A DNA stretch of 64,000 nt from Mobula hypostoma (lineage: Eukaryota): assembly GCF_963921235.1 (NCBI RefSeq), contig NC_086108.1, forward strand, positions 38,938,001-39,002,000. Direction: 5' to 3'. A program made the position numbers and the translations under genes. Shown one piece after another: positions 13,281 to 63,873 of this stretch. The notes below the pieces were generated by a model, which did not search any database, had not been told where the DNA came from, and worked only from the letters and a program-made list of their open reading frames with translations. Each line of letters starts with the position of its first letter. Position 1 is the stretch's first letter.

Positions 13281-13789
13281 CTGAGCTTGGAAAATTCACT
13301 GAGGGATGACGATTACACAATCAGTTCATTATCATATTGACAAGCATAATTGATTAACATACTCAGGGAGACACTTTAACCTAAAACGATGCTGCTCTTT
13401 GAACTGGAAAAGAAACAATCTCCAGAGTTTATTGGGATTAAAATTTAAGATTGTTTTTAAGGCCAGCTAAAGACAGCAAAGAGGTCCTGACAATTACAAA
13501 GTACACCACAGGCTACAACTTTAGCTGCAGGGTTCAGGTGTGGCTGTAACCTGACACCTGAGCAAGGTTCCGAGTAGGATCTGACAGAAATTGCTGGTTT
13601 TCAAAAGGTAGAGGCAGAAATTACATGAAAACTGGAAGCTGGGATGCAGAAAGAAGGGATATTTTTGAAATCATCCTATTATTTTGAAAATCAACCACAC
13701 AGCATAAGAACCGAAGATCAGTAAGCTGTAAGGGGACAGGCAACTCGTAGAGCTGTTTTGCAAGGTTCTTAAGTTCCTGCGATCGATCA
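13281..13789 (-). pseudogene. Relic exon of the GREB1-family pseudogene
   Basis: Strong donor CAG|gtaagt at 13281. Translation SQELKNLAKQLYELPVPLQLTDLRFLCC...LLSASQLPVFM*FLPLPFENQQFLSDPTRNLAQVSGYSHT*TLQLKL*PVVYFVIV; the pattern QLP-x22-LA-x13-KL-x4-YxVI has the same spacing as recalled GREB1 SAQLPWLASLAASSCNDSVHVIECAYSLAEGLSEMFRLLVEGKLAKTNYVVII. 5' boundary uncertain. Confidence 0.6.
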
Positions 13790-13853
13790 CTTCAGAATTA
13801 AAACTCTAAAATTTGGAAGTGGTTTTCGAGCCACACAGCTATGGACTCGTAGA

Positions 13854-13935
13854 ATGGAAGAACAACTGCTGCCTTGCCTTGGCTGGTTGCTGACCACAAT
13901 ACTTGTACTAAAGGAAGGATTTTTTCTCACACAAG
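13854..13935 (+). CDS. CRB3-like short Crumbs gene, coding exon 1 (signal peptide)
   Basis: agaATGG Kozak context; MEEQLLPCLGWLLTTILVLKEGFFLTQ hydrophobic leader; phase-1 donor CAAG|gtaatg; candidate acceptor cacttcag| at 13795. Joins in frame (G+CA = Ala) to 24813. Confidence 0.7.
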
Positions 13936-14479
13936 GTAATGATCTGTTTGCTAAAAGTAAGGGGAGCTGTAGAAGTAGAAATATGCTTTTTCCAGATGAA
14001 ACTGGATTGGATACTGACATGGCAAAGTCATATAACAGGAAAGCAGGCCTTTCAGCCCACAATGGTTTCTGCTGAATAAACGTACCAAGTTATATTCATT
14101 CCTTTTTCCACCAATTGGCTTCTAACCTTCTATGAGATGCTGTTTTAAGTGCTCATCTAAGTACTTCTCCAGTGTTCTGAAAGGGCCTGCTTCCAAATTA
14201 CAAACATCCTCGGGGTAAATAAATATCTTCCTTAAATCTTAGACCCCTGCATTAAACCTGTGCCCTTGGTTGGGGAGACATTTCTGCCAAGGGGTAAATT
14301 TTCTCACTAATTCTCCCTGAAACACCTTGTATAATACTATTTCCCTCAATCAGGGTGCCCCACAGCCTTACCCACATGGAAAACAAACCCAGGCTGTGTA
14401 GTGTTTCCCCTGGCTGAAATCTTCCATCTCAGGCAACAGGTAGAGGATGAGCAATAAGTTTGGTCCTGACCACGGAAGC

Positions 14480-14705
14480 TGTCCGTGTAGAGTCTGCACG
14501 TTTTTCCATTGACTGCACGAGACTCCTCTGCTACATCACAATTGCATTCTGCTTCACAGGTTAATTGGTAGTTGTAAATTATCCTTTGTGTAGGTAGGTG
14601 GGGAGTTGAGGAGCATGAGAGATAAATGAGGGAATGAGATTTACAAGATGGTCCTGAGAGCAAGCACAGATTCAATGGGCTGAATGGCTTTTCTCCGTGT
14701 CCTCT
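14480..14705 (+). repeat. Degraded SINE (HE1-like, with CR1-type tail)
   Basis: gtctgcacgttttcc...ggttaattggt..tgtaaatt..gtgtaggtaggtg...gggctgaatggc, similar to the copy at ~58500-58800. Confidence 0.45.
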
Positions 14706-17700
14706 GCACCTCTGCACCGTTTCCAATTAAATCTCATCTTTGTACTGTAGACCAATTGAGCACAGTATTCCAGCTGCAGCCTAAATGATTATACACTCGT
14801 CGTAACTTCTCTACTCCCAGACCATCATGATGGATAATTTGTACTATCTTGGAAAAAGGGAATTTTTATGAATGAAATATCAAGTAGGTTTGATTGCTAA
14901 AAGATTGGGTTGAGGTTAAGACTTTACTATTGGCGGGTATGTTTTTATTTGTGCATAATGTACGAGTCATTATATGAAATAAAATGTAGTATGTTTGCAG
15001 AAAGGAAATAGCTTTAGTATAAACACACAAAGCAACAGACATATTTACAAGTTTTAGTAGATACAGTTTTCAAATGAAAAGGAAAGTGCTATTGTTTTCT
15101 TTGGTATCCCAATACAATCAAATTATTATAATTTTCTTTAAAGAAGCATGAACTTGGAGATAAATTTTTTGCTGATTTTGTATTTAACACATTGATAACA
15201 CTTGGGAATTTATAAATATTATGATATTTAATGTGAGATTAATGAAATAAGGCAGTAATTACACAAGAGATTTGTAGTGGGGAAAGAAATTTCAAACATG
15301 TCATGCATTATCTTTTTTCCTCATAAAACAATTGAAAGTAATTCTTGTAGTTCCAGAGGTGTACAAAGCATACTCAACCACAGCTGTCAGATTATTTTAT
15401 GGTGCACTAGAACCAAAACATTACTGGGGTTTAAACTTGTTTCAGGGCATTGTTTAGTTCTCACGGTTAATCTTAGATCTAAGCGATTTTTTTTTCCACA
15501 TTTATATAAGATAATTGAATAAGTAAGTATTCCAATTCCCAAAGCAAGTAAGTAATTTGCCCTGACTCACTATACATAGCAGTTTCATTTTCCAAACTGA
15601 ATATACAGTATAATGATGCTCATGACCAGAGCAAACAACCAGTAATATCAGTTCTCTGCCCAAACACATCACAATGCCAGTTCTGCATCTGAATGTATTA
15701 ACTCAGATTCCAAAGGTAGTTTCACCGTATAAATGATTTTAGATAGTGACTTATATATACTGGTTACTAATACAATGTATAAGTCACCAAAACTATAATT
15801 TTGAGGTGCATTCCATATGCAATATCCAAGGACCTGGATATCAATTCACTGACCCTATCCTCCACCTTCAAACAACATCACTTTTCAAATCACAAATTAA
15901 TTCTTCTGGTCCTTTTCACTCAGATCTATAGTTTGCCAGTGTTTTAATTTATTACCCTAAAGGTTGCTCTATTAAATTTAATTCCTTGCTGCTCGATATC
16001 CTCAAGAATTCCATGCTACCCATTCCTATCACACTGAATCCATGTGAACCTGGATTTTCAATTGATTTACTCTACATTCCAGAACTATATAGCCAACCCA
16101 GCCCTAAATCCTGGAAAAAATATATAAAAATGATCAGTTTTCAGAGATAACTTGAACTATTCAGTGTCATTCTCACTGGGCCCAAAGCTTAACACCTCAT
16201 TCTGTCTAATTCCCCTTGTACTGTATGCTGTGACCAGCCAGTCATTTGAGTAAACATTTTTCAGCTGGAGAGACACCTTCCTTTCATCTCCATTTTTCCT
16301 AAGACCTGGCTGGATCCTCACAAGATACACCACTGGCCACAGGCTTCCAATCATAAAAACAATCTCCAGCCTTCATCCTCTTCATCCTATCACATAGTCA
16401 CTTTCAGACCCAATTTTCTGAATTACCCTGGGCTTTTACCTCTTGGACCTGTCTCCTTTGTGGGATATTGTCATAGACTTTACTGAAGTCCATGTTGACT
16501 GTATCAGCTGCAATATTCCCATCAATGTGCTTAGTTATCTTATCAAAAAGACTCAATCAAATAAATACTTAACATCATCGTCAATGTAAGTATAGTTAAA
16601 ATGCTAAATTTCAAAAATTAAAATATATAGCATAATGCAAAATATTTCATCAAAGTGCACATTAGGAAACCACAGTTAATTAAAAATGACCATGAAAATA
16701 CCATATTACAATAAATATGATTTACAAATGTCCTTCAATGATGGAAATTTGCTATCTTGCTTGACTTGGCCTATATGTGACCGAGCTATCGACAGGATAT
16801 TGGCCCTTCCCTACCCTCCGAAGTGGGATGCTAAGCACACCATTGCCATTTTGAGATGGTGGCCTTGTTAGCACATCCACAGCCTGTTAACACATTAAAA
16901 TAAATTAAGTAGAAACACCAGGCTTCACAAAAATGCTCAAACCACTTTTATCCAATTTCTTAGATCTAGAAAGGTACTTCGTTTTATAATCCATGGCCAA
17001 ATATGCAGAACAACTTAAAAATAAAACTGTGGAGGACTAGATATCTGCACTCATATTAAAACAGGACTGATGCAAGTAGTACATTAATGACCATATATTA
17101 TCTGTCAACATGGCTCTTAATGTATTGAAAATTATATTAATTGAAAATAAGGCCCTCCTTGAGATATCCTGGGACTTTTTATCTTTTATATTGATTATTC
17201 AAATTACCAAATAAATTGGAAGCGTGCTCTGGCAGGATGCCTGCAACTTAAAGTGTCCCGAGTTCCTATATTCAGTTCTTCCCTTGCTGACTTTTGTTGG
17301 CTTCATTTCTCTGTCCCTCTGTAGTGCATGAAGAGGCATTCTGACAGAAAAGACATTTTGCCAGTTTAACTGCGGTGAGAGATTTGAGAATCTATTACAT
17401 GCATCTCTCCTGCTATAGCGTATGCTGAAGCAATCTGATACAGCCAATGGCAATGTAGTTCACCCTGCCTTCACTCAGTCAGATCCTGCTTAGATTGTAA
17501 TTCAAAGGAAGACCAGAAAGGTTTAACTTCTGTCTCCCTGAAAAAAATATTTAATTGTTGGAGTAAACAAATTTCAAACATGGAAATTGCTGCTCTACGC
17601 TGAATTAATTCATTACCCATACTGCCAATAATGGCTATTTATCTGAAGTCCTAAAACAAACTGGGCTTCAGCCCTAAAAAAAAGGTTGTGTAATTACCAA

Positions 17701-17980
17701 AAATAATTTTTGAAATACAATTAAATGGAGCCAAGCACAGAAGTTCCTAAACGAGAATACTAAGGCTCATTTAGTTGGCCTGACCCTGTCATTGTCACGT
17801 GATACAAGACAGGTGTTGTCTATACCATCGATGAGTGCTCATAGCAAAATGGAAATTGATAGATTTAACACAGCCTTATATTAATATAGACTATGATTTT
17901 AGCCTAATTCAGCTGTTTTAAGGTTCTGTTCACAAAGGACTTAGATTTTAAAAAACTGTTTCTGTAGCGTTGTACACATT

Positions 17981-20900
17981 CATAGAACATAGAACAGTGC
18001 AGCTCAGGAGGGGGCCCTGTGCCCCACAATGTTGTGCCAAACCAGCTAAAAAGCAAATCCAAAACATCCAAACACCAATCCCTCCAACCTACACAATATC
18101 TATATCACTCCGTCTTCCTCACATTCATGGGCCCATCTGAACGTCTCTTCAAAGCCTTTAATGTATTTGCCTATACCACCATACCAGGCAGCGCATTCCC
18201 AGGCATCCACCATCTCGGAGTGAAAAAAAACTTACCCCTCACATCCCCTTGAACCTACCCCCTCCCACCTTCAATGCATGCCCTCTGGTATTAGACATTT
18301 CAACCATGGGAAACAGATACTCCCTGTCTACTCTATCTATGCCTCTCATAATCTTGTAAACCTCTTATCAGATCTCCCCTCAGTCTCCAATGCTCCAGAG
18401 AAAACTATCCAAGTTTGGCCAGCCTTACATGATAGCTCATGTCCTCTAAACTAGGCAGCATCCAGAAAAATATCTTCTACACCCTCTCCAAAGTCTCAAC
18501 ATCATTCCTATAGGGGCAACCAGAACTGAATGCAATACTCCAGATGTAGCCTAACTTATAAAGTGGCAGGGAGATGGGAACCAGAGTACCAGAACAGTTA
18601 GTGGACAGGTTGTGGAGACAGATATTGGTAAGACCTCAGAAAAAGTCAGGAATCAGAAGGTTGAGCATGGTGTAACTAGTGCCCTGAGCTGCATATATTT
18701 CAATACAAGAAGTGTCATCATAGGAAAGGTGGACAACCTCAGGGCTTGGATCAACACCTGGAATTTTGTTATTGTAGCTAATAGTGTGACTTGATTGCAG
18801 GAGGGGCAGGACTGGCAGCTCAATATTCCTGGGATCCGTTGTTTTAGATGTGACAGAGTGAGAGGGATTAAAGGAGGAGGGGTGGTGTTACTAGTCAGGG
18901 AAAATGTCATGGCTGTGCTCTGTCACAATAAGCTGGAGAACTCATCTGGTGATGCATTATGGGTGGAAATAGGAAATGAGACCGTGTTAATGGGGCTATA
19001 TCACAGACCACCCAACGGTCCTAGGGACTTAGAGGAACAAATTTTTAAAGGTATCACAGACTGTTGTAACAAATGTAAGGTTGTTATAGTAGGTGATTTT
19101 AACTTTTCACATATTGACTGGGAATCCCATGCAGTAAAAGGACTAGATGGGATAGAATTTGTCAAATGTGTTCAAGTAAAGTTTCCTTCATCACTTCATA
19201 GAAGTCCAACAAGAGAGCATGTGATACTTGATTTGCTGTCAGAGAATGAGACAGGGTAGGTAACAGAAGTTTTTGTAAGGGAACACTTTGCATCTAGTGA
19301 CCACAATGCCATTAGTTTCAAACAAAATATGTAAAATGATAGGTCTGGTCTGCAGACTGAGGTTCTAAATTGGAGTAAGGCCAAATTTGATGATATCAGA
19401 AATAATCTGGCAAGTATTGATTGGGACAGGCTGTTCTCTGGCAAAAGGTGTACTTACTAATTAGGAGGCCTTCAAAAGTGAAATGTTGAGAGTAAAAAGC
19501 TTGTATGTCCTTGTCAGAATAAAAAGTAAAGACAATAAATGTAGGGAACCTTGATTTTCAAGGGATATTGAGACCCTGCTTAAGAGAAAAAAACAGAGGT
19601 GCAGAGCAGGTATGGGCAGGTAGGAACAACTGAGGTGCTTACGGAGTATAAGAAATGCCAGAGAACACAAGAAAGAAACCAGGAAGGCTAAAAGAAGGCA
19701 CGGAGCTCCTCTAGCAGACAAGGTGAAGGAGAGTCCCGAGGGATTCTACAGATATGGTAAGAGCAAAAGGATTGCAAGGGACAAATTGGCCCTCTGGAAG
19801 ACCAAAATGGTAATCCATGTGCGGAGCCAAAATAGATGAGAGAGAACTTAAATTTCTTTTTTTGCATCTGTATTTACTCAGGAGATGACACAAAGTCCAT
19901 AAGAGTGAGGCAAAGTGGCAGCAACTTTATGGACCCTACACAGATTACAGAGGAGGAGGTGTTTGCTATCCTGAGGCAAATCAGGGTGGATAAATCCTCG
20001 GGGCCTGACAAAGTATCCCCATGGACCCTATGGGAGTCAAGTGCAGAAATTGCCAGGGCTCTAGCAGAGATATTTATATCATCCTTAGTGACAGGATAAG
20101 TACCAGAGGATTTGAGGATAGCCAGTGTTGTTCCACTGTTTATAAAAGGCTTTAAATGTAAACCAGGAAAGTATAGGCCAGTGAGTCGGATGTGGATGTA
20201 GGAAAGTTATTGGAAGTATTCTAAGGGATCAGAGATATTAGTATTTGGATAGACAAGGACTGATTAAGGATGGTCAGCACAACTCCATGCGTGGTAGGTC
20301 ATGTCTAACCAATCTTATAGAGTTTTTTGAGGAAGTTACCATGAAAGTGGATGAAGGCAAGGCAGGGGATGTTATCTACATGAACTTCAGCAAGACATTT
20401 CCTAAGGTCCCACATGGGAAGTTGGTCAAAAAGGTTCAGTCGCTTGGCATGCAAGATGAGGTAGTAAATTGGATCAGGTATTGGCTTTGTGGAAGAAGGC
20501 AGAGAGTGGTTGTAGATGGTTGCCTCACTGAATGGAGGCCTGTGACTAGTGTAGCTTTGCAGGAATCGGTGCTGAGTCCTTTGTGTGTCATCTGAATCAA
20601 TGATATGGATGATAATGTGGTTAACTGGATCAGCAAATTTGTGGATGACACCAAGATTGGGGGTGTAGTGGACAGCAAGGAAGGCTATCATGGCTTGCAG
20701 AGGGATCTGCATCATCTGAAAAAATGGGCTTAAAAATGGCAGATGGAATTTAATGCAGACAAATGTGAGGTTTTGCACTTCGGTAGGACCAGCCAGGGTA
20801 GGTCTTACACTGCGAACGGTAGGGCACTGAGGAGTGTGGTAGAACTAAGGATTCTGGGAATACAGGTACATAATTTGTTAAAAGTGGCATCACAGGTAGA

Positions 20901-23398
20901 TAAGGTCGTAAAGAAAGCTTTTGGCACATTGGCCTTCATAAATCAATGCACTGAGTACAGGAGATGGGATGTTTGGTTGAAGTTGTATAAGACATTGGTG
21001 AGGCCTAATTTGGAGTATTGTGTGCGGTTTTGGTCACCTATCTACAGGAAAGATGTAAACAAGGTTGAAAGAATACAGAGAAAATTTACAAGGATATTCC
21101 TGAGTCTGGAAGACTTGAGTTATAAGGAAAGATAGAATATGTTAGAACTTTATTCCCCAGAACATAGAAGATTGAGCGGAGATTTGAGAGAGGTAAGAGG
21201 CAAGCACATTTTTTCCACTGAGGTTGGGTGGGACTAGAACCAGAAGCCACAGGTTAAGGGTGAAAGGTGCAAAGTTGAAGGGGAATATGAGGGGACCCTC
21301 CTCACTCAGAGAGTCACGAGAGTGTGGAATAAGATGCCAGCTCAAGTGGTGCATGCAAGCTCGATTCCGAAATTTAAGAGAAGCTTGGATGGGTACATGG
21401 ATGGTAGGGGTATGGAGGGCTATGGTGTTGCTGCAGGTTGATGGGAATAGGCAGTTTAAATGGTTTTGGCCTGGACTAGATGGGCAGAAGGGCCTCTTTC
21501 TATGATGTACTCTGTGACTCTATGACAAATCTATGCAACATAACCTCTGGACTTTTGAACTCAATGCATTGAATAATAAAAACAAGCTTTCAAAATGCCT
21601 TCTTCACCATCTTATTGGCCTGTGTAGCCACCTTCAAGGAGCTATGAACCTGGATTCCAAGATCTCTCTGCTCAGCAACACTATTAGGGATCTTGCCCTT
21701 AACAGTCTACTGTCTCCTTGTACGTGACCTACTTTTACCAGATAGAAGTGCAACACCTCACACTTATTTGTGTTAAACTCCATCTGCCTTTTCTATGCCC
21801 ACATCTGCAAATGATGTATGTTATACTGTATTCTTTGCCAGTCTTCTACACTATCCACAACTCCACAATCTTGGTATCATCCACAAACTTACTAACCCAC
21901 CAATCTATATTTTCATCCAAGTCATTTATATACAAGCAGCACGGATCCCTGTGGAACACCACTAATTATAGACCTCCAGCTCGATAAGTCCCTTCAACCA
22001 CAACCCTCTGTCTTCCATGCGCAAGCCAGTTCTGAATCCAAGCAGCCAATTCACCACCTTTCCCCATGCATCTTAATTTTCTGGTTTAGCCTCCCATTAG
22101 GGATTTTATCAAATGCCTTACTAAAGTCCATGTAGACACCATCCACTGCCCTACCTTCATCAATCTCTCTCGTCACCTTGTCAAAAAACTCAGTCAAGTT
22201 GGTAAGACATGACCTGCCCCATGCAAAGCCAAGCTGGCTCTCCCTAATTAGGCCATGGATTTCCAAATGCTCATGTATCCTATCCCTAAGAATTTTCTCT
22301 AGCAATTTCTCTACAACTGACGTGAGACTCACTGGTCTATAGTTCCCAGGATTTTCTCTTGTTCTTCTTCTTAAACAGAGGTACAACATTAGCCACTCGC
22401 CTGTCCCCAGGACGTTGCCTGTGCCTGGAGAGGAGACAAAGATACGGGTCAAGGGCCCTGCATTCTTGTTTCTTGCCTCCGTCAATAACCTGGAGCAAAA
22501 CCCATCAAACCTTGGGGGAGTTATCCACCTTAATACTCATAAGGAGGCCCAATACTTCCTCCTCCTTGACATCTAAACGCTCTAATACGTTTATACACTC
22601 AGCATTGATCTCCTGGTCCTCCATCTCCTTTTCCTTGATAAAGTACCAAAGCAAAGTACTCATTAAGTACCTCATTCATATTCTCCGCATCCAAGAAAGT
22701 GTTCCCCCTTTTATCCTTGAGTGGTCCCGCTCTCTTTCTAAGGCATTGTATGTATAGAATGCCTTAGGATTCACCTTAATCCAACTTAACAAGGACTTTG
22801 CATAGCCCCCCTTGGCTTTCCTAATTCTCTTCTTAGGTTCTTTTTTGTCTTCTTTCTACTCCACATGTGCTTCATTTGACCATAGCTTCTGAAGCTTTAC
22901 ATACTTTTCATTTTTCTTCTTGACTAAATTCATCACCTGTCTGGAGATCCAAGGTTCTCCTATCTTTCCATCCTCACCCTACCTTCCAACAGGAACATAT
23001 CTTTCCTGTATTCTGTGCAATTGATCTTTAAGCACTCTCCACATGTCCGATGTGGACTTGCCAGAAAAAAGGTGTTCCCAATTAACTCTTCATAGGTCCT
23101 TCCTAATGCCCTCATAATTTACCCTACTCCGGTTTGAAACTCTCCTGCAAGGACCATGCCTATCCTGAAAGTTAGGGAGTTCTGGTCACTATTCCCTAAC
23201 TATTCACACACTGAAAAGTCAGTCGTCCAACCAGGGTCATTACCCAGCACCAGATGCAGTACAGCCCCTCTTCACATTGGATCATCCACCTGTTGATTTA
23301 AGAAACCTTTTTGGACATACTTAACAAATTCTGCCCAGTCAAAATCCCTTCCACGAAGGAGGTCCCAGTTTATATAGGGAAGTTGAAATCTCCCCATA
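17981..23398 (-). mobile_element. CR1 LINE (minus), split by a nested plus-strand CR1
   Basis: 3' tail catagaacatagaacag at ~17981; the sequence breaks at ~18565 and resumes at ~21535 (gcaacataacctc...); ORF 22051-22485 NYRPVSLTSVVEKLLE...YMDFSKAFDK. Confidence 0.85.
18566..21525 (+). mobile_element. CR1 LINE (plus), degraded ORF2, nested in a minus-strand CR1
   Basis: ORFs 18612-19259 (APE: YFNTRS, GDFNF), 20245-20595 and 20743-21135 (RT and C-terminus LVRPNLEYC); tail gtgactctatgac. Confidence 0.9.
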
Positions 23399-23666
23399 CC
23401 TGGCTTGCTGAGTTCCTCCAGCATTTTGGATGGGGCATATTAAATATGGTCAATGTAACTCAACGGGCAGCTTAGACTTAATGGGAAGAAGCAGGCGTGA
23501 AAGCCATGAATTCCCACTGGCTATGAAACCTGTCACTGTTATTGAATATTCAAAGTTAAATAGAGTCTGTTAATCAATGAAAATAATTCTACAAAATTAG
23601 AAATCTTTAAACACACAGTATTTGAATCAACCTAATTAACAAATGAAAAAAAAAATCTGTACTTAC

Positions 23667-23890
23667 ATTAGTTCTGATAGGCTGACTGCGAGCATTTTGC
23701 GTGGCACTTGTATCAGTTTGAATGGGAAGATTTCCTGTTGTGAGAGCTGGAGGCTCATGGAAGTTAGTGCTGTGATGGTGGAATTGACCAGTAATCCCTG
23801 TGCACTGTGCAAGTGGACCAGGACCAGTGATATGCTGAGCAGAATTCTTCAGAACTGCCTCACTTAGGACTAGCCCAGTTATCTTTTCAT
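23667..23890 (-). pseudogene. Possible exon of the minus-strand relic gene (open frame, strong donor)
   Basis: Stop-free frame DEKITGLVLSEAVLKNSAQHITGPGPLAQCTG...ARSQPIRTN ending at AAT|gtaagt; acceptor weak; no recognisable motif. Confidence 0.35.
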
Positions 23891-24812
23891 CTGCCAGCAG
23901 ATTCAGACAAATTGTAACAGATCTGCCCAGTTATATTCCATTTTGGCTAATTTTAATACTGTGAATTTTTAATCAAGTCAGTATTTACACAAACATCCTC
24001 AAAGACTTCCTTGTTAGACTTGAAATACAGTGCGTAGTTTCAGTAGAATTTCAGTAGTTTGATTACGTATTAGATTTGGGCATTTTAATACCTGCATTCT
24101 GCACCTACTTACATCACAGAAAGTTATGTGGAAGTATGATTTGCTTATTATTAGTTATCAATAGTTATTTTGCAGTGTATTGCCCACAGATTTAGTCGGT
24201 ATCTCAACATAAATGCAAAGGTTACTCTTTGTAACATTGGTTTATACAGCTGTTATTCAACTAAGTCATATTTTTACAATCTGTGACATTCACACAGGTT
24301 GCCAGGAGTTAAAAATAAAACAGAATAGTTTGGAATTGCAAGAAGCAGTTTTTGTGCAGAGAGAAAAAGAGCTAACATTTCTGCTTCTTGACTCTCAACA
24401 AATGAAAGTTGAGGCCAGGGCTGTAAATGAGGGTTGCACTTCCCTCATCAGATCACTTTCAGATTTGTAATGTTAATAAAAAGAAGAAAACATGTGCAGT
24501 GACTTTCCCTCCGTATTAGAATTTCACCAGCGGCTCAGGTCAGCAGTCCAGTTTTCCACCCAGGTCACACATTTCCATTTTAAGAATAGGTGTCTGCAAC
24601 ACAGGCAAAATTCACTAAATGAGCTAAAACCTGTTTACTGAACAAGTACTTAAGATTCTTCACTTTGCAATCCATCACCTTGTCAAAGAAAGCCTGCAAT
24701 AAAAATACATTTGCATTACTGTTTTGTCAGTGGCAATTTCGGTTTAGATTATGTAGATTTCAATTTTCAACATTCCAGTAATGTCTTCATACTAGTATTG
24801 GTTCCTTTACAG

Positions 24813-24865
24813 CAGTGAATGTTACAGATTCTACACCATCAAGGAAGCCTGATAACTCATCATCT
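24813..24865 (+). CDS. CRB3-like gene, coding exon 2 (53-nt stalk exon)
   Basis: gttcctttacag|CA GTG AAT ... TCA TCT|gtaagt, phase 1 to 0. Encodes (A)VNVTDSTPSRKPDNSSS, Ser/Thr-rich with two N-glycosylation sequons (NVT, NSS). NAGNAG alternative acceptor at 24816. Confidence 0.75.
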
Positions 24866-25666
24866 GTAAGTTGATAGATTTAAGTTGACCTGACGTTGAT
24901 ATACACCATGGGTTTCAGTATAATTCAGCTTTTAAGGAACAATTCAGAAAGGATTTAGTTAAAAAAAACTGTTTCTGTAGCACTATACAGGTTTATCTTT
25001 GGAATGCCAATTGATCTTCCAATTATCACTAACAGGACACTATCAGGTTAATACCATGATCAACAATGCAGTTTTTAAAGAAGCCTTTACAATTGAAACG
25101 AACATAAATTAGTGCAATTATATGCATTATCCTTCTAATGCATTTATGTATAAATGCCACTTCAGAAAATCAGATTGCAGTCTCCAAGCCTTTCATGCTT
25201 TTGTTGTGGAAATATTCCTGATAGAGAAGGGCATGATATTAATAACAAGCATTGAATTAGATACAAAAAGTATGAATTTATTATGCATGAATTATTACAT
25301 CAGGGCTTAATGTTGAAGTAGTCTATTGTGCAATAAATGTTACCCAACAGTGGGAAGAAAACAAGCATAATGTAAATATAAAAACTGAAGCTGCAGCAGA
25401 TGAGTAACTCAGTTGCTGCTGGCTTGGACTCAGATTTGATCTTCAGTTCACCCCCAATCTCCAGGATCCCCAGTATAATCCGGAGTGCCGGGGAAGGGTC
25501 CGAACGCATACCAATCTTACCAGCTAGCAGGCAGTAGCTCATCCTAAAACTGGATGTTGGGCTGGTCTATGTCAGGTCATTATCTCACTGATCATCAAGA
25601 GCAGCGAAGGAAGGCAGTAGAAAAGCAGATGCAAGGAATGGGGAGGTTACATGTATTTCCAAAAGA

Positions 25667-28600
25667 TAGAACATAGCACATAGAATAGTACAGCACAGTA
25701 CAGGCCCTTTGGCCCTTAAACCCTGCCTCCCATATAAACCCCCACCTTAAATTCTTCCATATACCTGTCTAGTAGTCTCTTAAATTTCACTAGTGTATCT
25801 GCCTCCACCACTGACTCAGGCAGTGCATTCCACGCACCAACCACTCTCTGAGTAAAAAACCTTCCTCTAGTATCCCCCTTGAACTTCCCACCCATTACCT
25901 TAAAGCCATGTCCTCTTGTATTGAGCAGTGGTGCCCTGGGGAAGAGGCGCTGGCTGTCCACTCTATCTATTTCTCTTAATATATTGTGTACCTCTATCAT
26001 GTCTCCTGTCATCCTCCTTCTCTCCAAAGAGTAAAGCCCTAGCTCCCTTAATCTCTGATCATAATGCATACTCTCTAAACCAGGCAGCAGCCTGGTCAAT
26101 CTCCTCTGTACCCTTTCCAATGCTTCCACATCCTTCCTATAGTGAGGCAACTAGAACTGGACAGAGTACTCCAAGCGTGGCGTAACCAGAGTTTTATAGA
26201 GCTGCATCATTACATCGCGACTCTTAAACTCCATCCCTCAACTTATGAAAGCTAACACCCCATAAGCTTTCTTAACTGCCCTATCTACCTGTGAGGCAAC
26301 TTTCAGGGATCTGTGGACATGTACCCCCAGATCCCTCTGCTCCTCCACACTACCAAGTATCCTGCCATTTACTTTGTACTCTGCCTTGGAGTTTGTCCTT
26401 CCAAATTGTACCACCTCACACTTCTCCGGGTTGAAATCCATCTGCCACTTCTGCATCCCATCAATATCTCTTTGCAATCTTCGACAATCCTCTACACTAT
26501 CCACAACACCACCAACTTTAATGTCGTCTGCAAACTCGCAAACCCACCCCTCTACCCCCACATCCAGGTCATTAATAAAAATCATGAAAAGTAGAGGTCC
26601 CAGAACCGATCCTTGTAGGACACCACTAGTCACAATCCTCCAATCTGAATGTACTCCCTCCACCACGACCCTCTGCTTTCTGCAGGCAAGCCAATTCTGA
26701 ATCACCTGGCCAAACTTCCCTGGATCCCATGCCTTCTGACTTTCTGAATAAGCCTACCATGTGGAACCTTATCAAATGCCTTACTAAAATCTATGTAAAT
26801 CATATCCACTGCACTATCCTCATCTATATGCCTGGTCACCTCCTCAAAGAACTCTATCAGGCTTGTTAGACACGATCTGCCCTTCACAAAGCCATGCTGA
26901 CTGTCCCTGATCAGACCATGATTCTCTAAATGCCCATAGATTCTATCTTTAAGAATCTTTTCCAACAGCTTTCCTACCACAGACGTAAGGCTCACTGGTC
27001 TATAATCACCCAGACTATCCTTACTACCTTTTTTGAACAAGGGGACAATATTTGCCTCCCTCCAGTCCTCCGGTACCATTCCCGTGCACAACGAGGACAT
27101 AAAGATCCTATCCAGGGGCTCAGCAATCTCTTCCCTCGCCTCGTGGAGCAGCCTGGGGAATATTCCGTCAGGCCCCGGGGACTTATCCGTCCTAATGTAT
27201 TTTAACAACTCCAACACCTCCTCTCCCTTAATATCAGCATGCTCCAGAACATCAACCTCACTCATATTGTCCTCACCATCATCAAGTTCCCTCTCATTGG
27301 TGAATACCGAAGCGAAATATTCATCGAGGACCTCGCTCACTTCCACAGCCGCCAGGCATATCTTCCCACCTTTATCTCTAATCAGTCCTACATTTACTCC
27401 CGTCATCCTTTTGTTCTTCACATAACTGAAGAATGCCTTGGGGTTTTCCCTTACCCTACTCGCCAAGGCCTTTTCATGCCCCCTTCTTGCTCTCCTCAGC
27501 CCCTTCTTAAGCTGCTTTCTTGCTTCCCTATATTCTTCAATAGACCCATCTGATCCTTGCTTCCTGAACCTCATGTATGCTGCCTTCTTCCACCTAACTA
27601 GATTTTCCACCTCACTTGTCACCCATGGTTCCTTCACCCTACCATTCTTTATCTTCCTTACCGGGATAAATTTATCCCCAACATCCTGCAAGACATCCCT
27701 AAACATCGACCACATGTCCATAATACATTTCCCTGCAAAAACATCATCCCAATTCACACCCATAGGTTCTAGCCTTATAGCCTCATAATTTGCCCTTCCC
27801 CAATTAAAAATTTTCCTGTCCTCTCTGATTCTATCCTTTTCCATGATAATGCTAAAGGCCAGGGAGCAGTGGTCACTGTCCCCCAAATGCTCACCCACTG
27901 AGAGATCTGTGACCTGACCCAGTTCATTACCTAATACTAGATCTAGTATGGCATTCCCCCTGGTCGGCCTGTCCATGTACTGTGACAGGAATCCGTCCTG
28001 GACACACTTAACAAACTCTGCCCCGTCTAAACCATTGGAACTACTCAGGTGCCAATCAATATTAGGGAAGTTAAAGTCACCCATGATAACAACCCAGTTA
28101 TTTTTGCACCTTTCCAAAATCTGCCTCCCAATCTGCTCCTTGGCATCTCTGCTGCTACCAGGGGGCCTATAGAATACTCCCAACAGGGTAACTGCTCCCT
28201 TCCTGTTCCTGACTTCCACCCATGCTGACTCAAAAGAGTATCCTGCGACATTACCCACCCTTTCTATAGCTATAATAGTATCCCTGACCGGTAATGCCAC
28301 CCCTACTCCCCTTTTCCCCCCTCTCTATCCCTTTTAAAGCACTGAAATCCAGAAATATTGAGAATCCATTCCTGCCCTGGTGCCAGCCAAGTCTCTGTAA
28401 TGGCCACTACATCATAATTCCATGTATGTATCCAAGCTCTCAGTTCATCACCTTTGTTCCTGATGCTTCTTACATTGGAGTACATACACTTTAGCCCTTC
28501 TGCCTTACTACCTTTACACCGTTTATTCTGCTTCTCTTTCCTCAAAGCCTCTCTATATGTTAGATCTGGCTTTACTCCATTCACTTTCTTTCACTGTTCT

Positions 28601-29345
28601 ATCGCTCCGGGTCCCATCCCCCTCCCGAACCATGCTAGCAAACCTACCTGCAAGGATATTGCTCCCCCTCGAGTTCAGGTGCAACCTACCCAATCTGTAC
28701 AGGTCCCACCTTCCCCAGAAGAGATCCCAATGATCCAAAAATCTAAAACCCTGCTCCCTGCACCAACTCCTCAGCCATGCATTCAACTGCCATCTCCTCC
28801 AATTCTTACCATCACTGTCACGTAGCACTGGCAGCAATCCTGAGAACGCCAACCTTGAGGTCCTGTTCTTCAGCCTTCTGCCTAATTCCCAAAACTCACA
28901 CTTCAGGACCTCATCCCTCTTCCTGCCTATGTCGTTGGTACAAACATGTATCACGACTTCTGGCCGCTTTCCCTCTCGTACCAGGATGTCATGCACCCGG
29001 TCAGAGACATCCCAGATCCTGGCACCCAGGAGGCAACAAACCACGCGGGTGTCCTTCTCGCGTCCACAAAATCTCCTGAATGCTCCCCTGACTATAGAGT
29101 CTCCAATGACGACAGCTCTCCTCTTCTCCGTTCCACCCTTCTGAACCACAGGGTCAGACTCAGTGCCGGAGGCCCTGCCACCGTGGCTCACCCCTGGTCG
29201 GCCGTCCCCGCCAACAGTATCCAGGATGGTAAACTTATTATTTAGGGGAATGGCTACAGGGGTGATCTGCACTACCTGTCTGCTCACCTTCACTTTCCCC
29301 CCTCTGACTGTCACCCAACAACCTGCTTCTGGCAGCTTAGGTTTT
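25667..29345 (-). mobile_element. CR1 LINE, near full-length and relatively young (ORF1 esterase + ORF2 APE/RT)
   Basis: ORF 28553-29314 SGNH-like (VVIGDSIVRG, TNDIG, LHLN); ORFs 28303-28584, 26702-28300 (532 aa), 26238-26705 and 25716-26150 cover APE, RT and C-terminus with few disruptions. Confidence 0.95.
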
Positions 29346-29734
29346 TAGAAGTAAATGTGTATTAAAGTAAATGGAAACATTTCACCCGGAAATATTTTAA
29401 TCCCAGAATACAAGAAAGCATGGAAGACAAATACTTAGCTAATCACATCCATGCTTCATGTGTAAAAGAGTATTCCAATTAATCCTACCCCTCAAGCACC
29501 TCCTCCATTTCCTTGCAAATATTTCCTTTCCAGTCATTTACCAATTTTCTTTCAAAAATTTCATACGAGTCTGCTCCACTACTTGTTAAGGTAACACAAT
29601 CCAAATCAAACTTAAATATGCTTTTGAACAAAAGAAGCAAGTTTGGGCTTTTGATTTACAGGCCTAGTCTAGACGAATGTTTGTCCCATTTGTGCCAGTC
29701 TTTCTAATTATAAAAATATGGATTATTTTCACAG

Positions 29735-29956
29735 ACAACTTCGCCACCTAGCCAAGTAAACATAGCAGCCATTGTGGCTCCATGTGTCATTGTTGGGGTG
29801 ATAGTTCTTGCTACCATTCTGACTTTCCTAATCCTAAAACTGCGTGAGAAACGTAAGACTGAAGGGAACTACAGTCCAAGCAACCAGGAACAAACAGCAG
29901 CTCAAATGGAAATGAACAATGCTCTTAAACTACCACCAGAAGAGCGCCTGATTTGA
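29735..29956 (+). CDS. CRB3-like gene, terminal exon (TM + Crumbs cytoplasmic tail)
   Basis: gattattttcacag|ACA, phase 0; TTSPPSQVNIAAIVAPCVIVGVIVLATILTFLILKLREKRKTEGNYSPSNQEQTAAQMEMNNALKLPPEERLI*. KLREKRxTEGxY...LKLPPEERLI is the CRB3-type tail. Confidence 0.9.
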   Translation, partial: TTSPPSQVNIAAIVAPCVIVGVIVLATILTFLILKLREKRKTEGNYSPSNQEQTAAQMEMNNALKLPPEERLI

Positions 29957-30085
29957 TGTGCTGAAGCTTTGGGATACAATCTTGGGGGTTAATGGTGGAA
30001 GATGTCAACATACCCCAGGTATTCCCTATGCTACTCAACAATTGGAGTTAAAAAAAATCTGTCACAAAGCTGTGGAACTCAAAGA

Positions 30086-30112
30086 GTGTGTGTGTGCGCG
30101 CGCGTGCGTGCA
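30086..30112. repeat. (GT)n(GC)n alternating purine-pyrimidine tract
   Basis: gtgtgtgtgtgcgcgcgcgtgcgtgca between the two Crumbs terminal exons. Confidence 0.85.
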
Positions 30113-30194
30113 TTATTTCTTTAAACCAAGGCAGCTTCAAAGCTAATCCAGTGTGGGCTATCCCTAAGTGTTTAATTGTTTTCACTCTTGTCAG

Positions 30195-30407
30195 CAGGAA
30201 GCCTGGACCTCAGAGTTTCTTCTTTATACTGGGTTGGTCACCGTCGTGTTGTTGCTGATTTTCTTTCTAGTACTTGCTGCCACTATTATGACCCTGAATA
30301 AAAGAGCAACACATGGGGCCTACAGCCCAAGCCGGCAGGAGAAGGAGGGGTCACGAGTGGAGATGTGGAACATGGTGCAACCACCACAAATGGAAAGACT
30401 TATTTGA
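30195..30407 (+). CDS. CRB1: Crumbs homolog 1, last coding exon (TM + cytoplasmic tail)
   Basis: ttttcactcttgtcag|CAG (NAGNAG), phase 0; [70 protein letters not shown], closely matching the CRB1 tail [25 protein letters not shown]..PPxMERLI. The DENND1B neighbour fits known synteny. No EGF exon found in the window, so upstream exons lie outside it. Confidence 0.92.
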
Positions 30408-30587
30408 ATGAAGCTTGTTTCACTACATATTGTCATGTCACCTCTGCATGGATAGGCTGAGGACTATTCAATTCAACATCTTGCGAGAAATGCTTTGTTA
30501 GTATTAGATATTTTCTGTTACCCATTTGCGGGCATCACCAGCAAGGCCTATTTAATGCCAATCTCTAACTACCCATGAGATGGTACT

Positions 30588-30593
30588 AATAAA
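30588..30593 (+). terminator. Candidate polyadenylation signal for Crumbs transcripts
   Basis: First AATAAA after the CRB1 stop; further copies at ~31158, ~31182 and ~31318. Confidence 0.35.
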
Positions 30594-32039
30594 CTGCCGA
30601 CTTGAACTGTGGACAGTCAACATGAATGTACCTTCACAGTGTAATTAACTAGGTAATTCAACTTTAATCTGTCACTTGCTTGCCCCGATATTCAAATATG
30701 TTATTGAAAATTGCTCTTCCTCAAAATTTTCAACAGATAAGGGGTCTCGATGCTAATAAGTGATATTAAGAATACAAAATGTGCACAAATACAGAAAATT
30801 TGATGCAATTGGATGGTTCAGCCAAGATAATAAGCCGATGTACCAACAACTCTTAGGCGTTACTGTTAAGAACAAGGTGGTCAGAAACGGAGCATTAAAC
30901 TCCTTGTGATAGATGAAAATTGAACCACATGCATCTCAGCAGGGTGAAAATATTAAAATTCTTCTCTTTTATTTCATTGTAGTCATTCAAATTTTTTTTT
31001 TGTAATACAGCACCGTTTTTTACATTAATGTACTCAAGATCACCAAGACCCAGGCAAAGAATCACAGAATTACAAATTGTGGTCTGAGAAAATTGATCTT
31101 TTGAGTTGATTTAGAATTAAGATGGACAAAAACAGGTTATAGTTCTGTCAACAAGCAAATAAACAAGTGAAAACATGACAAAATAAAAATATTAGACACA
31201 ATTTATAATGGTTTTAACCATGTTGAAAACAGACACTTTATCACAGTGTAAATCTTTGTATAACAGTACTATAACAGTGTTACAAACCATACAGATACCC
31301 TACTTTTTTTCTGATGAAATAAACCTTTGTTACACATATTCAAATTAGTCACTAGTTTCAAGCGAGTTCTTTGAAGGAATCAAAGCTGGTTAATATTTCA
31401 TGGGTCAATTCTGCACCTAAAGAATAGCATCCACATAAGATGTTCCTTTAGTTCTTCCTTTTTTCAAGCATTTTTTATTTCTAGTATTTTCTTATTTCAG
31501 TTCTTTTTAACTCTGGAAAAATTGACATTTTTTACTTGTATTGAGACTCCTTTGAAGAACTGTTGAACGGAGAGAGGTTAATATTTACCAGATCATGCTT
31601 TAATCTCCATCTGCATTGAACAAACATTTTAAATGGAACGCACGTTCAAAGTAGCCTGGTAAATTGATTATTTTCAGTATCTGACTAACACACAGTATTT
31701 TATGGCAGAATTGGGCAAAATCAGCTGAAGGATGTTTATCAGATTTTGATGTTTTTCCTGATTTGGGAATGCTTTTATTACTATCCATATGGTGGGAGAT
31801 GTTAATTGCCAGAGTTCAAGGTCAAGCACCACACAAATGGTGTTAGCTCCAATCAGTGAGATTAAATACAAGGAACAGTAGCATAAGTTGCATGGGGTCA
31901 GTTTTAATATGTATATGCTAAGAATATCAAGGAACTTGCTTATAGTTATTGATTAATTGCAAAGATATGTGTTTGTTTAAAATAAGTGAGAAGGCTTTGA
32001 TGATGATGGTATAATAAAACTATCAAGACAAATTGGAGG

Positions 32040-35000
32040 ACAGGAAGCGCGTGGACATCAGCCAGTGAGAACAGCTAGAAGAATTTAAAAGAGAAAGAGT
32101 TTAAAGAGTTGAATTTCTGTATTTTATAGCTGTAGAAGATATATATTAATAAAAAGATTTAAAAATGAGTTTAAAGGGAGTCGGTTATTTCTTCAGCGGT
32201 TTGATCAAGGCACAACTGTGCAAGTGCGCGGACGTCAGCCAGTGTGAACAGCGAGAAGAGTTTAAAAGGAGACAGATTTATAGAGCAGGCGACAGAGTAA
32301 AGGGAGACAGTAGGAAGAGACAGAGTAGGAAGGCTTTGGCTCAACGGGGCTTTGGCGATAATGGTTCGAGGTGAGGTAGGTTAACTGTATAGAATACAGA
32401 CAGGAAGAATGTGTGTGAAGCCAGTGTTCTGTGCTCGGTGTCAGATGTGGGAAGTCTGGGAGACTCCCAGCCTCCTGGACGGCCACATCTGCACCAGGTG
32501 CGTCGAGGTGCAGCTCCTTAGGGACCGTGTTAGGGAACTAGAAATGCAGCTCGATGACCTTCGTCTGGTGAGGGAAAGTGAGGACATGATAGAGAGGTGC
32601 TATAGGCAGGTAGTCACACCAGGGCCTGGGGAGACAGATAAGTGGGTCACGGTCAGGAGAGGAAATGGCAGGAGTCAGAGGCTAGAGAGCACCCCTGTGA
32701 CTGTCCCTCTTGACAATAAGTACTCCTGCTTGAGTACTGTTAGGAGGGGGGACGGCTTACCTGGGGGAAGCAATAGTGGCCGTGCCTCTGGCACAGAGTC
32801 CGGCCCTGTGGCTCAGAAGATTAGGGAAAGGAAGAGGATGGCAACAGTGATAGGAGACTCAGACAGGCGATTCTGTGGACGCAGGAAAGAAACTTGGATG
32901 GTAGTTTGCTTCCCAGGTGCCAGGGTCTGAGATGTTTCTGATCACGTCCAAGACATCCTGAAGTGGGAAGGAGAACAGCCAGAGGTCATGGTACATATTG
33001 GTACCAAGGACATAGGCAGGAAAAAGGAGGAGGTTCTGAAAGCAGATTACAGGGAGTTAGGAAGGAAGTTGAGAAGCAGGACCACAGAAGGTGTCATCTC
33101 GAGATTAATGCCTGTGCCACGTGACAGTGAGTATGGGAATAGAGTGAGGTGGAGGATAAATGCGTGGCTGAGGGATTGGAGCAGGGGGCAGGGATTCAGA
33201 TTTCTGGATCATTGGGACCTCTTTTGGGGCAGGAATGACCTGTACAAAAAGGACAGGTTGAACTTGAATCCCAGGGGGACCAATATCCCAGCGGGGAGTT
33301 TTGCTAAAGCTACTGGGGAGTGTTTAAACTAGGATTGCTGGGGGTTGGGAACCAAGCTGAAGAGATGGACGAAGAGGTGGTTGGGTCACAAATAGAGAAA
33401 GCTTGGAGTCAATGCGAGTGGGAGGATAGACAGGTGATAGAGAAGAGAAGCGCTCAGATCGATCGTTTGAGATGTGTCTATTTTAATGCAAGGAGTATTA
33501 TGAACAAAGTGGATGAGCTTAGAGTGTGGATCAGTACTTGGATCTATGATGCTGTGGCCATTACAGAGATCGGGATGGCTCAGGGGTAGGAGTGGTTACT
33601 TTGAGTACCAGGCTTTAGATGTTTCAGAAAGGACAGGGAGGGAAGCAAAAGAGGTGGGGGCGTAGCCCTGTTGATCAGAGATAGTGTCATGGCTGTAGAA
33701 AAGGAGGAAGTCATGGAGGGATTGTCTATGGAGTCTCTGTGGGTGGAAGTTAGGAACAGGAAGGGTTCAATAACTCTACTGGGTATTTTTTTATAGGCCA
33801 CCTAATAGTAACAGGGACTAGAGTTGCAGATAGGGAGACAGATTCTGGAAAGGTGTAATAATAAAAGGGTTGTTGTGGTGGGAGATTTTAATTTCCCAAA
33901 TATCGATTGGCATGTCCCTAGAGCAAGGGGTTTAGATGGGGTGGAGTTTGTTAGGTGCGTTCAGGAAGGTTTCCTGACACAATATGTAGATAAGCCTACA
34001 AGAGGAGAGGCTGTACTTGATCTGGTATTGGAAAATGAACCTGGTCAGGTGTCAGATCTCTCAACGAGAGAGCATTTTGGAAATAGTGATCACAATTCTA
34101 TCTCCTTTACCATAGTATTGCAGAGGGATAGGAGCAGACTAGTTAGGGAAGCATTTAGTTGGAGTAAGGGGAAATATGAGACTATCAGGCAGGAGCTTGG
34201 AAGCATAAATTGGGGACTGCTGTTCTCAGGGAAATGTACAGAAGTAATGTGGCAAATGTTCAGGGTATACTTGTGTGGAGTTCTGCATAGGTACATTCCA
34301 ATGAGACAGGGAAAGGATGGTAGGGTACAGAACTGTGGTGTACAAAGGCTGTTGTCAATCTACTCAAGAAGAAAAGAAGAGACTACAAAAGGTTCAAAAA
34401 GCTACGTAATGATAGAGATCTAGAATATTGTAAGGCTAGCAGGAAGGAGCTTAAGAAAGAAACTAGGAGAGCCAGAAGGAGCCATGAGAAGGATTAAGGA
34501 AAACCCCAAGGCATTCTACAAGTATGTGAAGAGCAAGAGGATAAGACGTGAGAGAATAGGACCAATCAAGTGTGACAGTGGAAAAGTGTGTATGGAACCG
34601 GAGGAGATAGCAGAGGTACTTAATGAATACTTTGCTTCAATGTTCACTATGGAAAAGGATCTTGGTGATTGTAGGGATGACTTACAGCAGACTGAAAAGC
34701 TTGAGCATGTAGATATTAAGAAAGAGGATGTTCTGGAGCTTTTGGAAAGCATCAAGTTGGATAAGTCACGAGGACCAGACAAGATGTACCCCAGGCTACT
34801 GTGGGAGGTGAGGGAGGAGATTGCTGAGCTTCAGGTAATGATCTTTGCATCATCAATGGGGACAGGAGAGGTTCTGGAGGATTAGAGGGTTGCAGATGTT
34901 GTTCCATTATTCAAGAAAGGGAGTAGAGATAGCCCAGAAAATTATAGACCAGTGAGTCTTACTTCAGTGGTCAGTAAGTTGATGGAGAAGATCCTGAGAG

Positions 35001-63336: not shown

Positions 63337-63873
63337 CTAGGTGTTGGTGGTGGAAGCACCTACACTAGAAGTGGTGTGACCAGTTTGAATTCTGGAACAT
63401 AAACAGTCAATCTCCTTAAGTAGGTCTATTTCACTCGTGGGTTCCAAAAGTTCAGCCTCAACATCATCTTTTTCCCAAGGGATTAAAGCGGATGGGTTTT
63501 TTGGTGTATTTTCACACTGCTGTTTGTCTTCACTAGTTAGTGTTCGTTTTGGTTCCTGTTTAGCTGAAACTTTGACCTCCTGGCTCATTCCTTTGCAAGA
63601 GGAATGAGTTCCCAGTGAATCTTTACATGATGAGTCATTATGCAGTTTCGGAAAGTCTGTCAACTCCTCTACAAACACAGTGGAGCTTTCACAAGGCGTT
63701 GCTTCAAAAGTGATTGGATCTTCAGAACAGTTATAAAAAGATTTCCTTGGAGATGGTGGAAGGGGTTTTCTGTGGACAATAGTATCATCTTGTCCCAGGT
63801 GCCAACTCAGATGATCATTGCACTGCCCACCAAGTTCAGCCAGGTTTCCCTCGCTTGGAGTATTGGACTTGTT
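63337..63873 (-). CDS. DENND1B: DENN domain-containing 1B (connecdenn 2), last coding exon, 178 aa
   Basis: tcttttcattttcttag|AAC, phase 0; NKSNTPSEGNLAEL...WHLGQDDTIVHRKPLPPSPRK...ALIPWEKD...IDLLKEIDCLC...*, matching recalled DENND1B motifs WNLGQDD, LPPSPRK, VPWEKE, LLHEVVSLC; convergent with CRB1 as in mammals. Confidence 0.88.
   Translation of the reverse strand, partial: NKSNTPSEGNLAELGGQCNDHLSWHLGQDDTIVHRKPLPPSPRKSFYNCSEDPITFEATPCESSTVFVEELTDFPKLHNDSSCKDSLGTHSSCKGMSQEVKVSAKQEPKRTLTSEDKQQCENTPKNPSALIPWEKDDVEAELLEPTSEIDLLKEIDCLCSRIQTGHTTSSVGASTTNT

Follow-up and report, generated by a model that had tools for sequence, protein, structure and literature searches.

The last intron of CRB1 in the ray Mobula hypostoma contains two small exons that, joined to a transmembrane (TM) and tail exon downstream, encode a complete short Crumbs protein of 118 amino acids (aa). 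We consider it likely that these three exons constitute a real, conserved short-Crumbs transcription unit. The unit is better seen as one part of a compound CRB1 locus, whose two tail exons exclude each other, than as a nested gene in its own right. The exons were found in a stretch of 64,000 nucleotides (nt) referred to here as the window (assembly GCF_963921235.1, contig NC_086108.1, positions 38,938,001 to 39,002,000 of the forward strand). Coordinates without a prefix are those of the window; C50 denotes the contig that carries it, and C67 and C81 denote two other contigs of the same Mobula hypostoma genome. The coding exons of the short unit are as follows.

13854..13935, plus strand: short-unit coding exon 1 (82 nt; ATG start, donor GTAATG, phase 1).
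24813..24865, plus strand: short-unit coding exon 2 (53 nt; acceptor ...tttacag, donor GTAAGT).
29735..29956, plus strand: exon 3, the TM and cytoplasmic tail exon, designated 12a (222 nt; acceptor ...ttttcacag, stop TGA).

Exon 1 consists of the start codon and a hydrophobic, signal-peptide-like segment (27 codons plus 1 nt), and an in-frame stop lies 84 nt 5' of the ATG. Exon 2 encodes a stalk rich in serine, threonine, and proline (S/T/P) that includes an NVT sequon, and the tail encoded by 12a is of the a-type, reading ...REKRKTEGNYSPS...LKLPPEERLI and then stop. With coding-exon phases of 1 and then 0, the three exons join into 357 nt that encode 118 aa and one terminal stop. The coordinates, splice sites, and stop-free join proposed in an initial annotation of this DNA proved exact, and the product is letter for letter the RefSeq protein XP_062919932.1, "protein crumbs homolog 3-like isoform X1 [Mobula hypostoma]" (P0001). 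An alternative exon 2 acceptor at 24816 yields a product of 117 aa, as long as RefSeq isoform X2 (P0126), so that the tandem acceptor of this exon accounts for the RefSeq isoforms X1 and X2 of 118 and 117 aa. Tandem cag/cag acceptors are found both at exon 2 (24810-24816) and at the second tail exon of the locus, 12b (30192-30198). Since the 118-aa gene model is already public in RefSeq, what is new is the architecture of the locus and its implications for the history of the family rather than the protein itself.

The CRB3-like size and layout that had been proposed for the product were supported by motifs and hydrophobicity, which indicate a short glycosylatable stalk, one TM segment, a FERM-binding motif, and a C-terminal ERLI. 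On the Kyte-Doolittle scale, the hydrophobic core of the candidate signal peptide spans residues 9-19 (best 11-residue window, 2.27 from residue 9). An LTQA/V motif, spotted by eye near the end of this candidate signal peptide, is kept in 7 elasmobranch orthologues, as is the hydrophobic segment of exon 1. The ectodomain of about 26 residues is 58% S/T/P and carries sequons at N30 and N42, and the 118-aa product is without EGF or laminin-G domains. A single strong TM segment follows (best 19-residue hydrophobicity window, 2.86, starting at residue 55), and the tail of about 40 residues can be aligned with that of Drosophila Crumbs in PDB entries 4wsi and 4yl8 (E value of 1.7e-8).

Models of the same layout, 118 to 121 aa in length, were found in eight species: Mobula, Hypanus, Narcine, Mustelus, Carcharodon, Hemiscyllium, Rhincodon, and Callorhinchus. 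The two small exons, whose conservation in other chondrichthyans had been named as a check on the gene, are thus present in these eight species with models. In alignment A3, residues of exons 1 and 2 are kept across rays, sharks, and chimaera, including the NVT/NIT sequon; the TM segment and tail are close to invariant, and the tail motifs G.Y.PS and PPEERLI are fully so. Judged from the aligned sequences, conservation in eight species far exceeds the expectation for chance frames, which argues that the three-exon frame did not arise by chance.

The placement of the short unit inside the CRB1 locus was also borne out. Matches to the successive exons of the shark CRB1 protein P0009 occupy C50:38846332-38929372, and the next match is 12a (C50:38967732-38967953). 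The penultimate CRB1 exon ends in ...CEFD followed by the donor GTAAGC, in phase 0, at C50:38929366, which is 8.6 kilobases (kb) 5' of the window. The first two exons of the short unit lie within the 38-kb last intron of CRB1 on the same strand. A cysteine-pattern scan of the window revealed no EGF exons, and the CRB1 exons are upstream of it. Two further features of the locus directly follow 12a.

29957..30194, plus strand: spacer between 12a and 12b (238 nt), with a GT/GC-rich simple repeat near 30077-30122.
30195..30407, plus strand: CRB1-type TM and tail exon, designated 12b (acceptor 30195 or 30198, phase 0).

The CRB1-type tail (KRATHG...EMW...MERLI) is encoded by 12b and not by 12a, and 12b matches the C-termini of five shark CRB1 models (Scyliorhinus canicula X2, Cetorhinus X2, Chiloscyllium plagiosum X2, Chiloscyllium punctatum X2, and Hemiscyllium). 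The 12a acceptor is likewise in phase 0 and is compatible with the phase 0 donor of the penultimate CRB1 exon. No AATAAA is present between the 12a stop and 12b. Reads aligned to the spacer are cut at the GT/GC-rich repeat (30077-30122).

Long CRB1 proteins that end in a 12a-type exon are present among shark gene models. A search for longer proteins identified 4 such models among 89 candidates, and the clusters of those 4 contain 26 long CRB1 models, 12 ending in 12a and 5 in 12b; one more (Mustelus) ends by read-through of the penultimate exon, and 8 are incomplete. The 12a-ending models comprise S. canicula X1, X3, X4, and X5; S. torazame X1; Cetorhinus X1; C. plagiosum X1; C. punctatum X1 and X4; Heptranchias; and Pristiophorus, the twelfth being predicted ab initio and running on through the short exons as well. 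They span seven species other than Mobula, and four species have both 12a and 12b isoforms. Because 12a is the last coding exon of long CRB1 models in sharks, the locus is compound, and the description of the short unit as a complete, self-contained nested gene had to be given up: RefSeq shark models end full-length CRB1 in its TM and tail exon.

Two kinds of read-through were seen in this part of the gene. In the ab initio models P0127 and P0149, which come from older shark annotations, the CRB1 penultimate exon continues straight through short exons 1 to 3 (...CEFD-QCTVR-MEKRPL...). These read-through models are probably artefacts, but from them the exon order of Scyliorhinus and Chiloscyllium can be seen to agree with that of the ray. 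In the ray, read-through of the penultimate exon itself (C50:38929367-38929477, outside the window) gives VSDLSFFISVLLWQNIFQLLSYLILRMDDEPAVEWA and then a stop. The end of this read-through (RMDDEPAVEWA) matches the CRB1-B-specific C-terminus as represented by the mouse antigen RMNDEPVVEWGAQENY in excerpts of PMC7335077, and the same ending is found in the Mustelus CRB1 model P0134. By this match, a CRB1-B type ending is conserved in a ray.

Evidence of transcription comes from the assembled contigs of four runs (X1 to X4), which were aligned to a 19-kb stretch and carry no information on strand, RNA ends, or abundance. Contigs of X2, X3, and X4 join 13935 to 29735 with 0 mismatches and GT..AG ends, spanning 15.8 kb; a join of this kind is not expected from DNA and thus points to a spliced transcript. 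The contigs joined to exon 3 reach 5' to 13527 (X4), 13551 (X3), and 13596 (X2), and an X1 contig covers 13586-13892. Contigs run unbroken through the 12a-12b spacer and 12b, and those joined to exon 1 continue to 30960 (X2), 32140 (X3), and 32074 (X4), an extent that does not by itself prove a single transcript. AATAAA/ATTAAA sites 3' of 12b include those at 30588, 32013, and 32148. Contig coverage delimits two candidate untranslated regions.

13527..13853, plus strand: candidate 5' untranslated region of the short unit, from contig coverage; the contigs do not fix the transcription start.
30408..32140, plus strand: shared downstream transcribed stretch, a candidate 3' untranslated region, from contig coverage.

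The exon 1 to exon 3 splice of X2 to X4 is seen directly; the two junctions by which the gene was to be checked, 13935>24813 and 24865>29735, are reached only through the depth values of X1. Record 7 of X1, with a depth of 15.8, has 83 extra letters 5' of 29735, and the X1 bins are reproduced if exon 2 supplies 53 of these nt and exon 1 the other 30 (15.8 x 55/634 = 1.37; 6.6 x 307/634 + 15.8 x 28/634 = 3.89, from 3.20 + 0.70). From this depth arithmetic we infer that the three-exon form is present in X1. Between exons 1 and 3, the stretch from 17700 to 29300 is packed with reverse-transcriptase/endonuclease frames resembling those of long interspersed nuclear elements, the longest of 540 aa (e.g., 26702-28324, minus strand). 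Summed contig depths over these stretches run into the thousands, which indicates that the repeat families are heavily represented in the runs.

The short unit is the second short Crumbs of this genome. Searching the same genome with the 12a peptide identified two other places, C67:5649907-5650098 and C81:7281423-7281617. The first is of the CRB2 type, with long CRB2 exons upstream. The second is the tail exon of P0153, a 104-aa RefSeq "crumbs homolog 3-like" protein of the same species, whose gene occupies C81:7267817-7281617; genes of this type are named "crumbs homolog 3a" in related species. The P0153 gene consists of a 70-nt exon at C81:7267817, which was located with the P0153 protein itself, a 50-nt exon about 12.4 kb farther on, and a 195-nt tail exon, with phases 1 and then 0. 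No long Crumbs exon maps near it in a search with a stricter first pass, and a DENND1 paralogue lies 36 kb downstream on the opposite strand.

Downstream DENN-domain exons on the opposite strand are common to the CRB1, CRB2, and C81 loci, and the three peptides are about 90% alike. Mammalian CRB3 lies near DENND1C, CRB1 by DENND1B, and CRB2 by DENND1A. The arrangement of the three loci in the ray agrees with this pairing, the A, B, and C names of the DENND1 copies being assigned here from their Crumbs partners. In terms of position, the short unit lies inside CRB1 and not in the DENND1C-side position without long exons, which is held by the C81 gene. The initial annotation had proposed an extra short paralogue rather than the sole CRB3 and had called for a search for a separate CRB3 beside DENND1C; P0153, on C81 beside the third DENND1 paralogue, is the syntenic counterpart of CRB3 in this genome. 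At the CRB1 locus, DENN exons of the convergent DENND1 gene are found at C50:39089776 and C50:39103503 on the minus strand, 88-101 kb past the window end, and an open frame inside the window may be the C-terminal exon of this DENND1(B) gene.

63337..63873, minus strand: open frame of 178 aa, rich in S, P, and E, with no Pfam match.

How the genome came to hold two short Crumbs genes can be approached through their exon plans and tails. The initial annotation held that the locus carried both a long and a short Crumbs unit before duplication, and this long-plus-short hypothesis is plausible. In its fuller form, which we put forward tentatively, the pre-duplication Crumbs gene would have had an internal short promoter and tandem a/b tail exons. 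CRB3 would have kept the short unit and the a exon, CRB2 the long unit and a, and tetrapod CRB1 the long unit and b, with cartilaginous-fish CRB1 retaining all of the parts. The two short genes of the ray share their exon plan (82/53 nt in the CRB1 locus and 70/50 nt on C81, with the same phases), and their products are 55% identical over 91 aa. A short CRB3 also exists in hagfish. The a-type signature (K/R)RQ(T/S)EG.Y is common to 12a, CRB2, and CRB3, and 12b carries KRATHG.YSPSRQE, as do the Crumbs proteins of nemertean, crinoid, urchin, brachiopod, mollusc, and amphioxus. In a tree of 56 TM and tail rows (64 columns), 12b joins the invertebrate rows, and 12a groups with CRB2 and CRB3 (83/83).

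Further support for an early origin comes from the CRB2 locus, where a 12b-like relic is found at C67:5652037-5652096, on the same strand and 1.9 kb after the CRB2 stop (QENEGARIEMWSIVKPPQI, then stop). The relic is 63% identical to the 12b tail (tblastn E value of 1.3e-6; 0 of 200 shuffled queries at E <= 1e-3), lies directly after the end of a repeat, and is itself unique in the genome. Its presence suggests that the a-then-b order of tail exons may predate the split between CRB1 and CRB2. Against so early an origin, the relic DNA is about 75% identical over about 60 nt, which is surprisingly high for more than 450 million years unless the sequence has been constrained or is younger. Neither short-unit exons nor a second ERLI frame were found in the last CRB2 intron over the 13 kb before the last CRB2 exon, and no 12b-like relic is present within 40 kb after the C81 gene. 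No verified invertebrate short form was found, an 84-aa Ciona model being at most a candidate. The tail tree, with 64 columns, also counts against this history through its lack of resolution: the grouping of 12a with CRB2 and CRB3 stood, but the forks among 12a, CRB2, chondrichthyan crb3a, bony CRB3, and cyclostome CRB3 form a polytomy.

Another possible history, in our judgment only slightly less likely than the early origin, is that a three-exon CRB3 was copied into the last CRB1 intron in a post-duplication jawed-vertebrate ancestor and that its tail exon was then captured by long CRB1. Such a copy would be expected to show the exon plan and phases of the C81 gene and a CRB3-like a-type tail, as the short unit does, and the TM stretch IAAIVAPCVIGGV does not differ between the shark 12a and crb3a rows. 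However, this TM motif is also present in CRB2, cyclostome, and invertebrate rows and is therefore ancestral rather than specific to CRB3, and 12a nests in neither CRB3 clade. A copy would further require insertion in the right orientation just 5' of the last CRB1 exon, and the 12b-like relic after CRB2 suggests an a-then-b order older than CRB1.

Two teleost sequences also bear on the history of the short unit. In an exhaustive representative search that gave 330 matches at E <= 0.001, 150 of them listed, the tarpon protein P0154 ranked fourth among the representatives (99 bits). This single model joins a short unit, a 12a-like TM segment, and a decayed ..ERLL end to a 12b tail, forming a two-TM fusion. 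The mudskipper "Crumbs homolog 3b" (P0243) has a 12a-like TM segment and KLREKRRTEG followed by a CRB1-type end, and its hybrid tail falls beside 12b in the tree (91/96). The fusion in P0154 and the hybrid tail of P0243, the two sequences considered, suggest that teleost crb3b may descend from the short unit of the CRB1 locus. Excerpts of PMC5676222 report expression of zebrafish crb3b in the digestive system, and in the excerpted text of that paper and of PMC11129452, zebrafish crb3a and crb3b are treated as crb3 duplicates. As in the ray, crb3b is a second short Crumbs beside crb3a; the teleost tail is hybrid or decayed (ERLL), whereas the 12a tail of the ray retains an intact ERLI. No paper linking crb3b to crb1 or dennd1b was found in the full-text literature, supplements excluded. 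Placed together with the pre-duplication hypothesis, these observations give a picture that we regard as possible and no firmer than that hypothesis, in which vertebrate Crumbs genes derive from one compound gene with an internal short promoter and tandem a/b tail exons, a state still visible in cartilaginous-fish CRB1. In this picture, CRB3 would be what survives of one duplicate, namely its short unit; teleost crb3b would correspond to the short unit of the CRB1 locus rather than to a copy of crb3 made in fishes; and the relic after CRB2 would be a remnant of that arrangement.

Several points weigh against a functional short-Crumbs unit that shares its tail exon with long CRB1. All Pfam families fall below the cut-off for P0001, as they do for P0153, the 12b exon, and the 63337-63873 frame. 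Long CRB1 models that end in 12a were predicted automatically, and the use of 12a by long CRB1 in Mobula is deduced from the shark models and from phase. Runs X1 to X4 were guessed to be RNA, none being recorded as such. In three of the four runs (X2, X3, and X4) the assembled contigs leave out exon 2, the joints 13935>24813 and 24865>29735 are not among the 15 of 75 joint rows listed, and much of the transcript pool may be non-productive. The binding partners and function proposed below are predicted from motifs.

Carried to its end, the skipping of exon 2 would mean that the locus is transcribed but mostly non-productive, with the skipping form as the usual one and the 118-aa product minor or without function. 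The skipping form encodes 27 codons plus DNFAT and then a stop, a 32-aa open reading frame, and offers no other ATG leading into the ERLI frame. Even so, we regard this explanation as improbable. Eight species of rays, sharks, and chimaera preserve the 118-aa frame together with exon 2 and its NVT/NIT sequon, and the X1 depth values fit a form that contains exon 2. Assembled contigs, moreover, drop the rarer variant and therefore do not measure ratios. That the short unit is the only CRB3 of the species, brought here by relocation or misassembly, has nothing in its favour and is effectively ruled out by the separate P0153 gene next to a DENND1 paralogue on C81, by the annotation of both short types in 7 species, and by the models of 7 other species in which a 12a-type exon is joined to CRB1 exons.

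Under the reading that we prefer, a short-Crumbs transcription unit within a compound CRB1 locus, a promoter in the 38-kb last CRB1 intron would drive two small exons that encode a signal peptide and a short glycosylated stalk. These exons would splice to 12a, which lies about 240 nt upstream of the CRB1-type exon 12b. Both 12a and 12b fit the donor of the penultimate exon, and 12a could end either the 118-aa protein or full-length CRB1. The 118-aa product would act like CRB3A, as a type I apical membrane protein that anchors the apical scaffold, with the juxtamembrane FERM-binding motif and the ERLI PDZ ligand of its 40-residue tail recruiting PALS1/PATJ and PAR6. Both the internal promoter and the cleavage of the signal peptide are putative.

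The closest known counterparts of the ray unit are CRB3, in its ERLI-ending form CRB3A, and P0153. These proteins are 104-120 aa long, compared with 118 aa for the ray unit, and they share with it a candidate signal peptide, a short stalk with glycosylation sites, one TM segment, a tail of about 40 residues ending in LKLPPEERLI, and three coding exons in phases 1 and 0. Mammalian CRB3 probably has the same exon phases. In contrast to CRB3, the ray unit lies by CRB1 and the DENND1B-side paralogue and not by the third DENND1, and long CRB1 models use its last exon too. The tails differ as well, with YSPSNQEQ..MEMNN in the ray unit, YRPSSEEQ in bony-vertebrate CRB3, and YNPSQQEQ..TQINH in chondrichthyan crb3a. 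The Drosophila Crumbs tail, seen with a PALS1/Stardust-type PDZ-SH3-GK module in 4wsi and with the moesin FERM domain in 4yl8, keeps G.YSPS and PPEERLI in a 38-residue alignment with the ray tail. Fly Crumbs is a protein of more than 2,000 aa with EGF and laminin-G domains.

CRB1 is a major inherited-blindness gene whose isoform complexity (A, B, and C) was recognized only in 2020. The excerpted text of Ray et al. (2020; PMC7335077) describes the isoforms CRB1-A, -B, and -C only. As with CRB1-A and CRB1-B in those excerpts, the ray locus would combine alternative promoters and 3' ends in one gene, with products that differ in their TM and intracellular parts. An ERLI-bearing second tail exon or a CRB3-sized product is not described in the excerpts; the alternative tail of the ray locus keeps both polarity motifs, and its short form is without EGF and laminin-G domains. 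In the full-text literature, again with supplements excluded, no paper was found that places a CRB3-like unit, or a further tail exon with ERLI, within CRB1.

For the biology of the family, the finding means that CRB1 of cartilaginous fishes also carries a second polarity-competent tail exon and a CRB3-sized product. Human CRB1 is not directly concerned unless tetrapods prove to have kept remnants of 12a. The locus calls into question the view of teleost crb3a and crb3b as simple duplicates, and it offers a concrete, testable route from a long Crumbs gene to CRB3.

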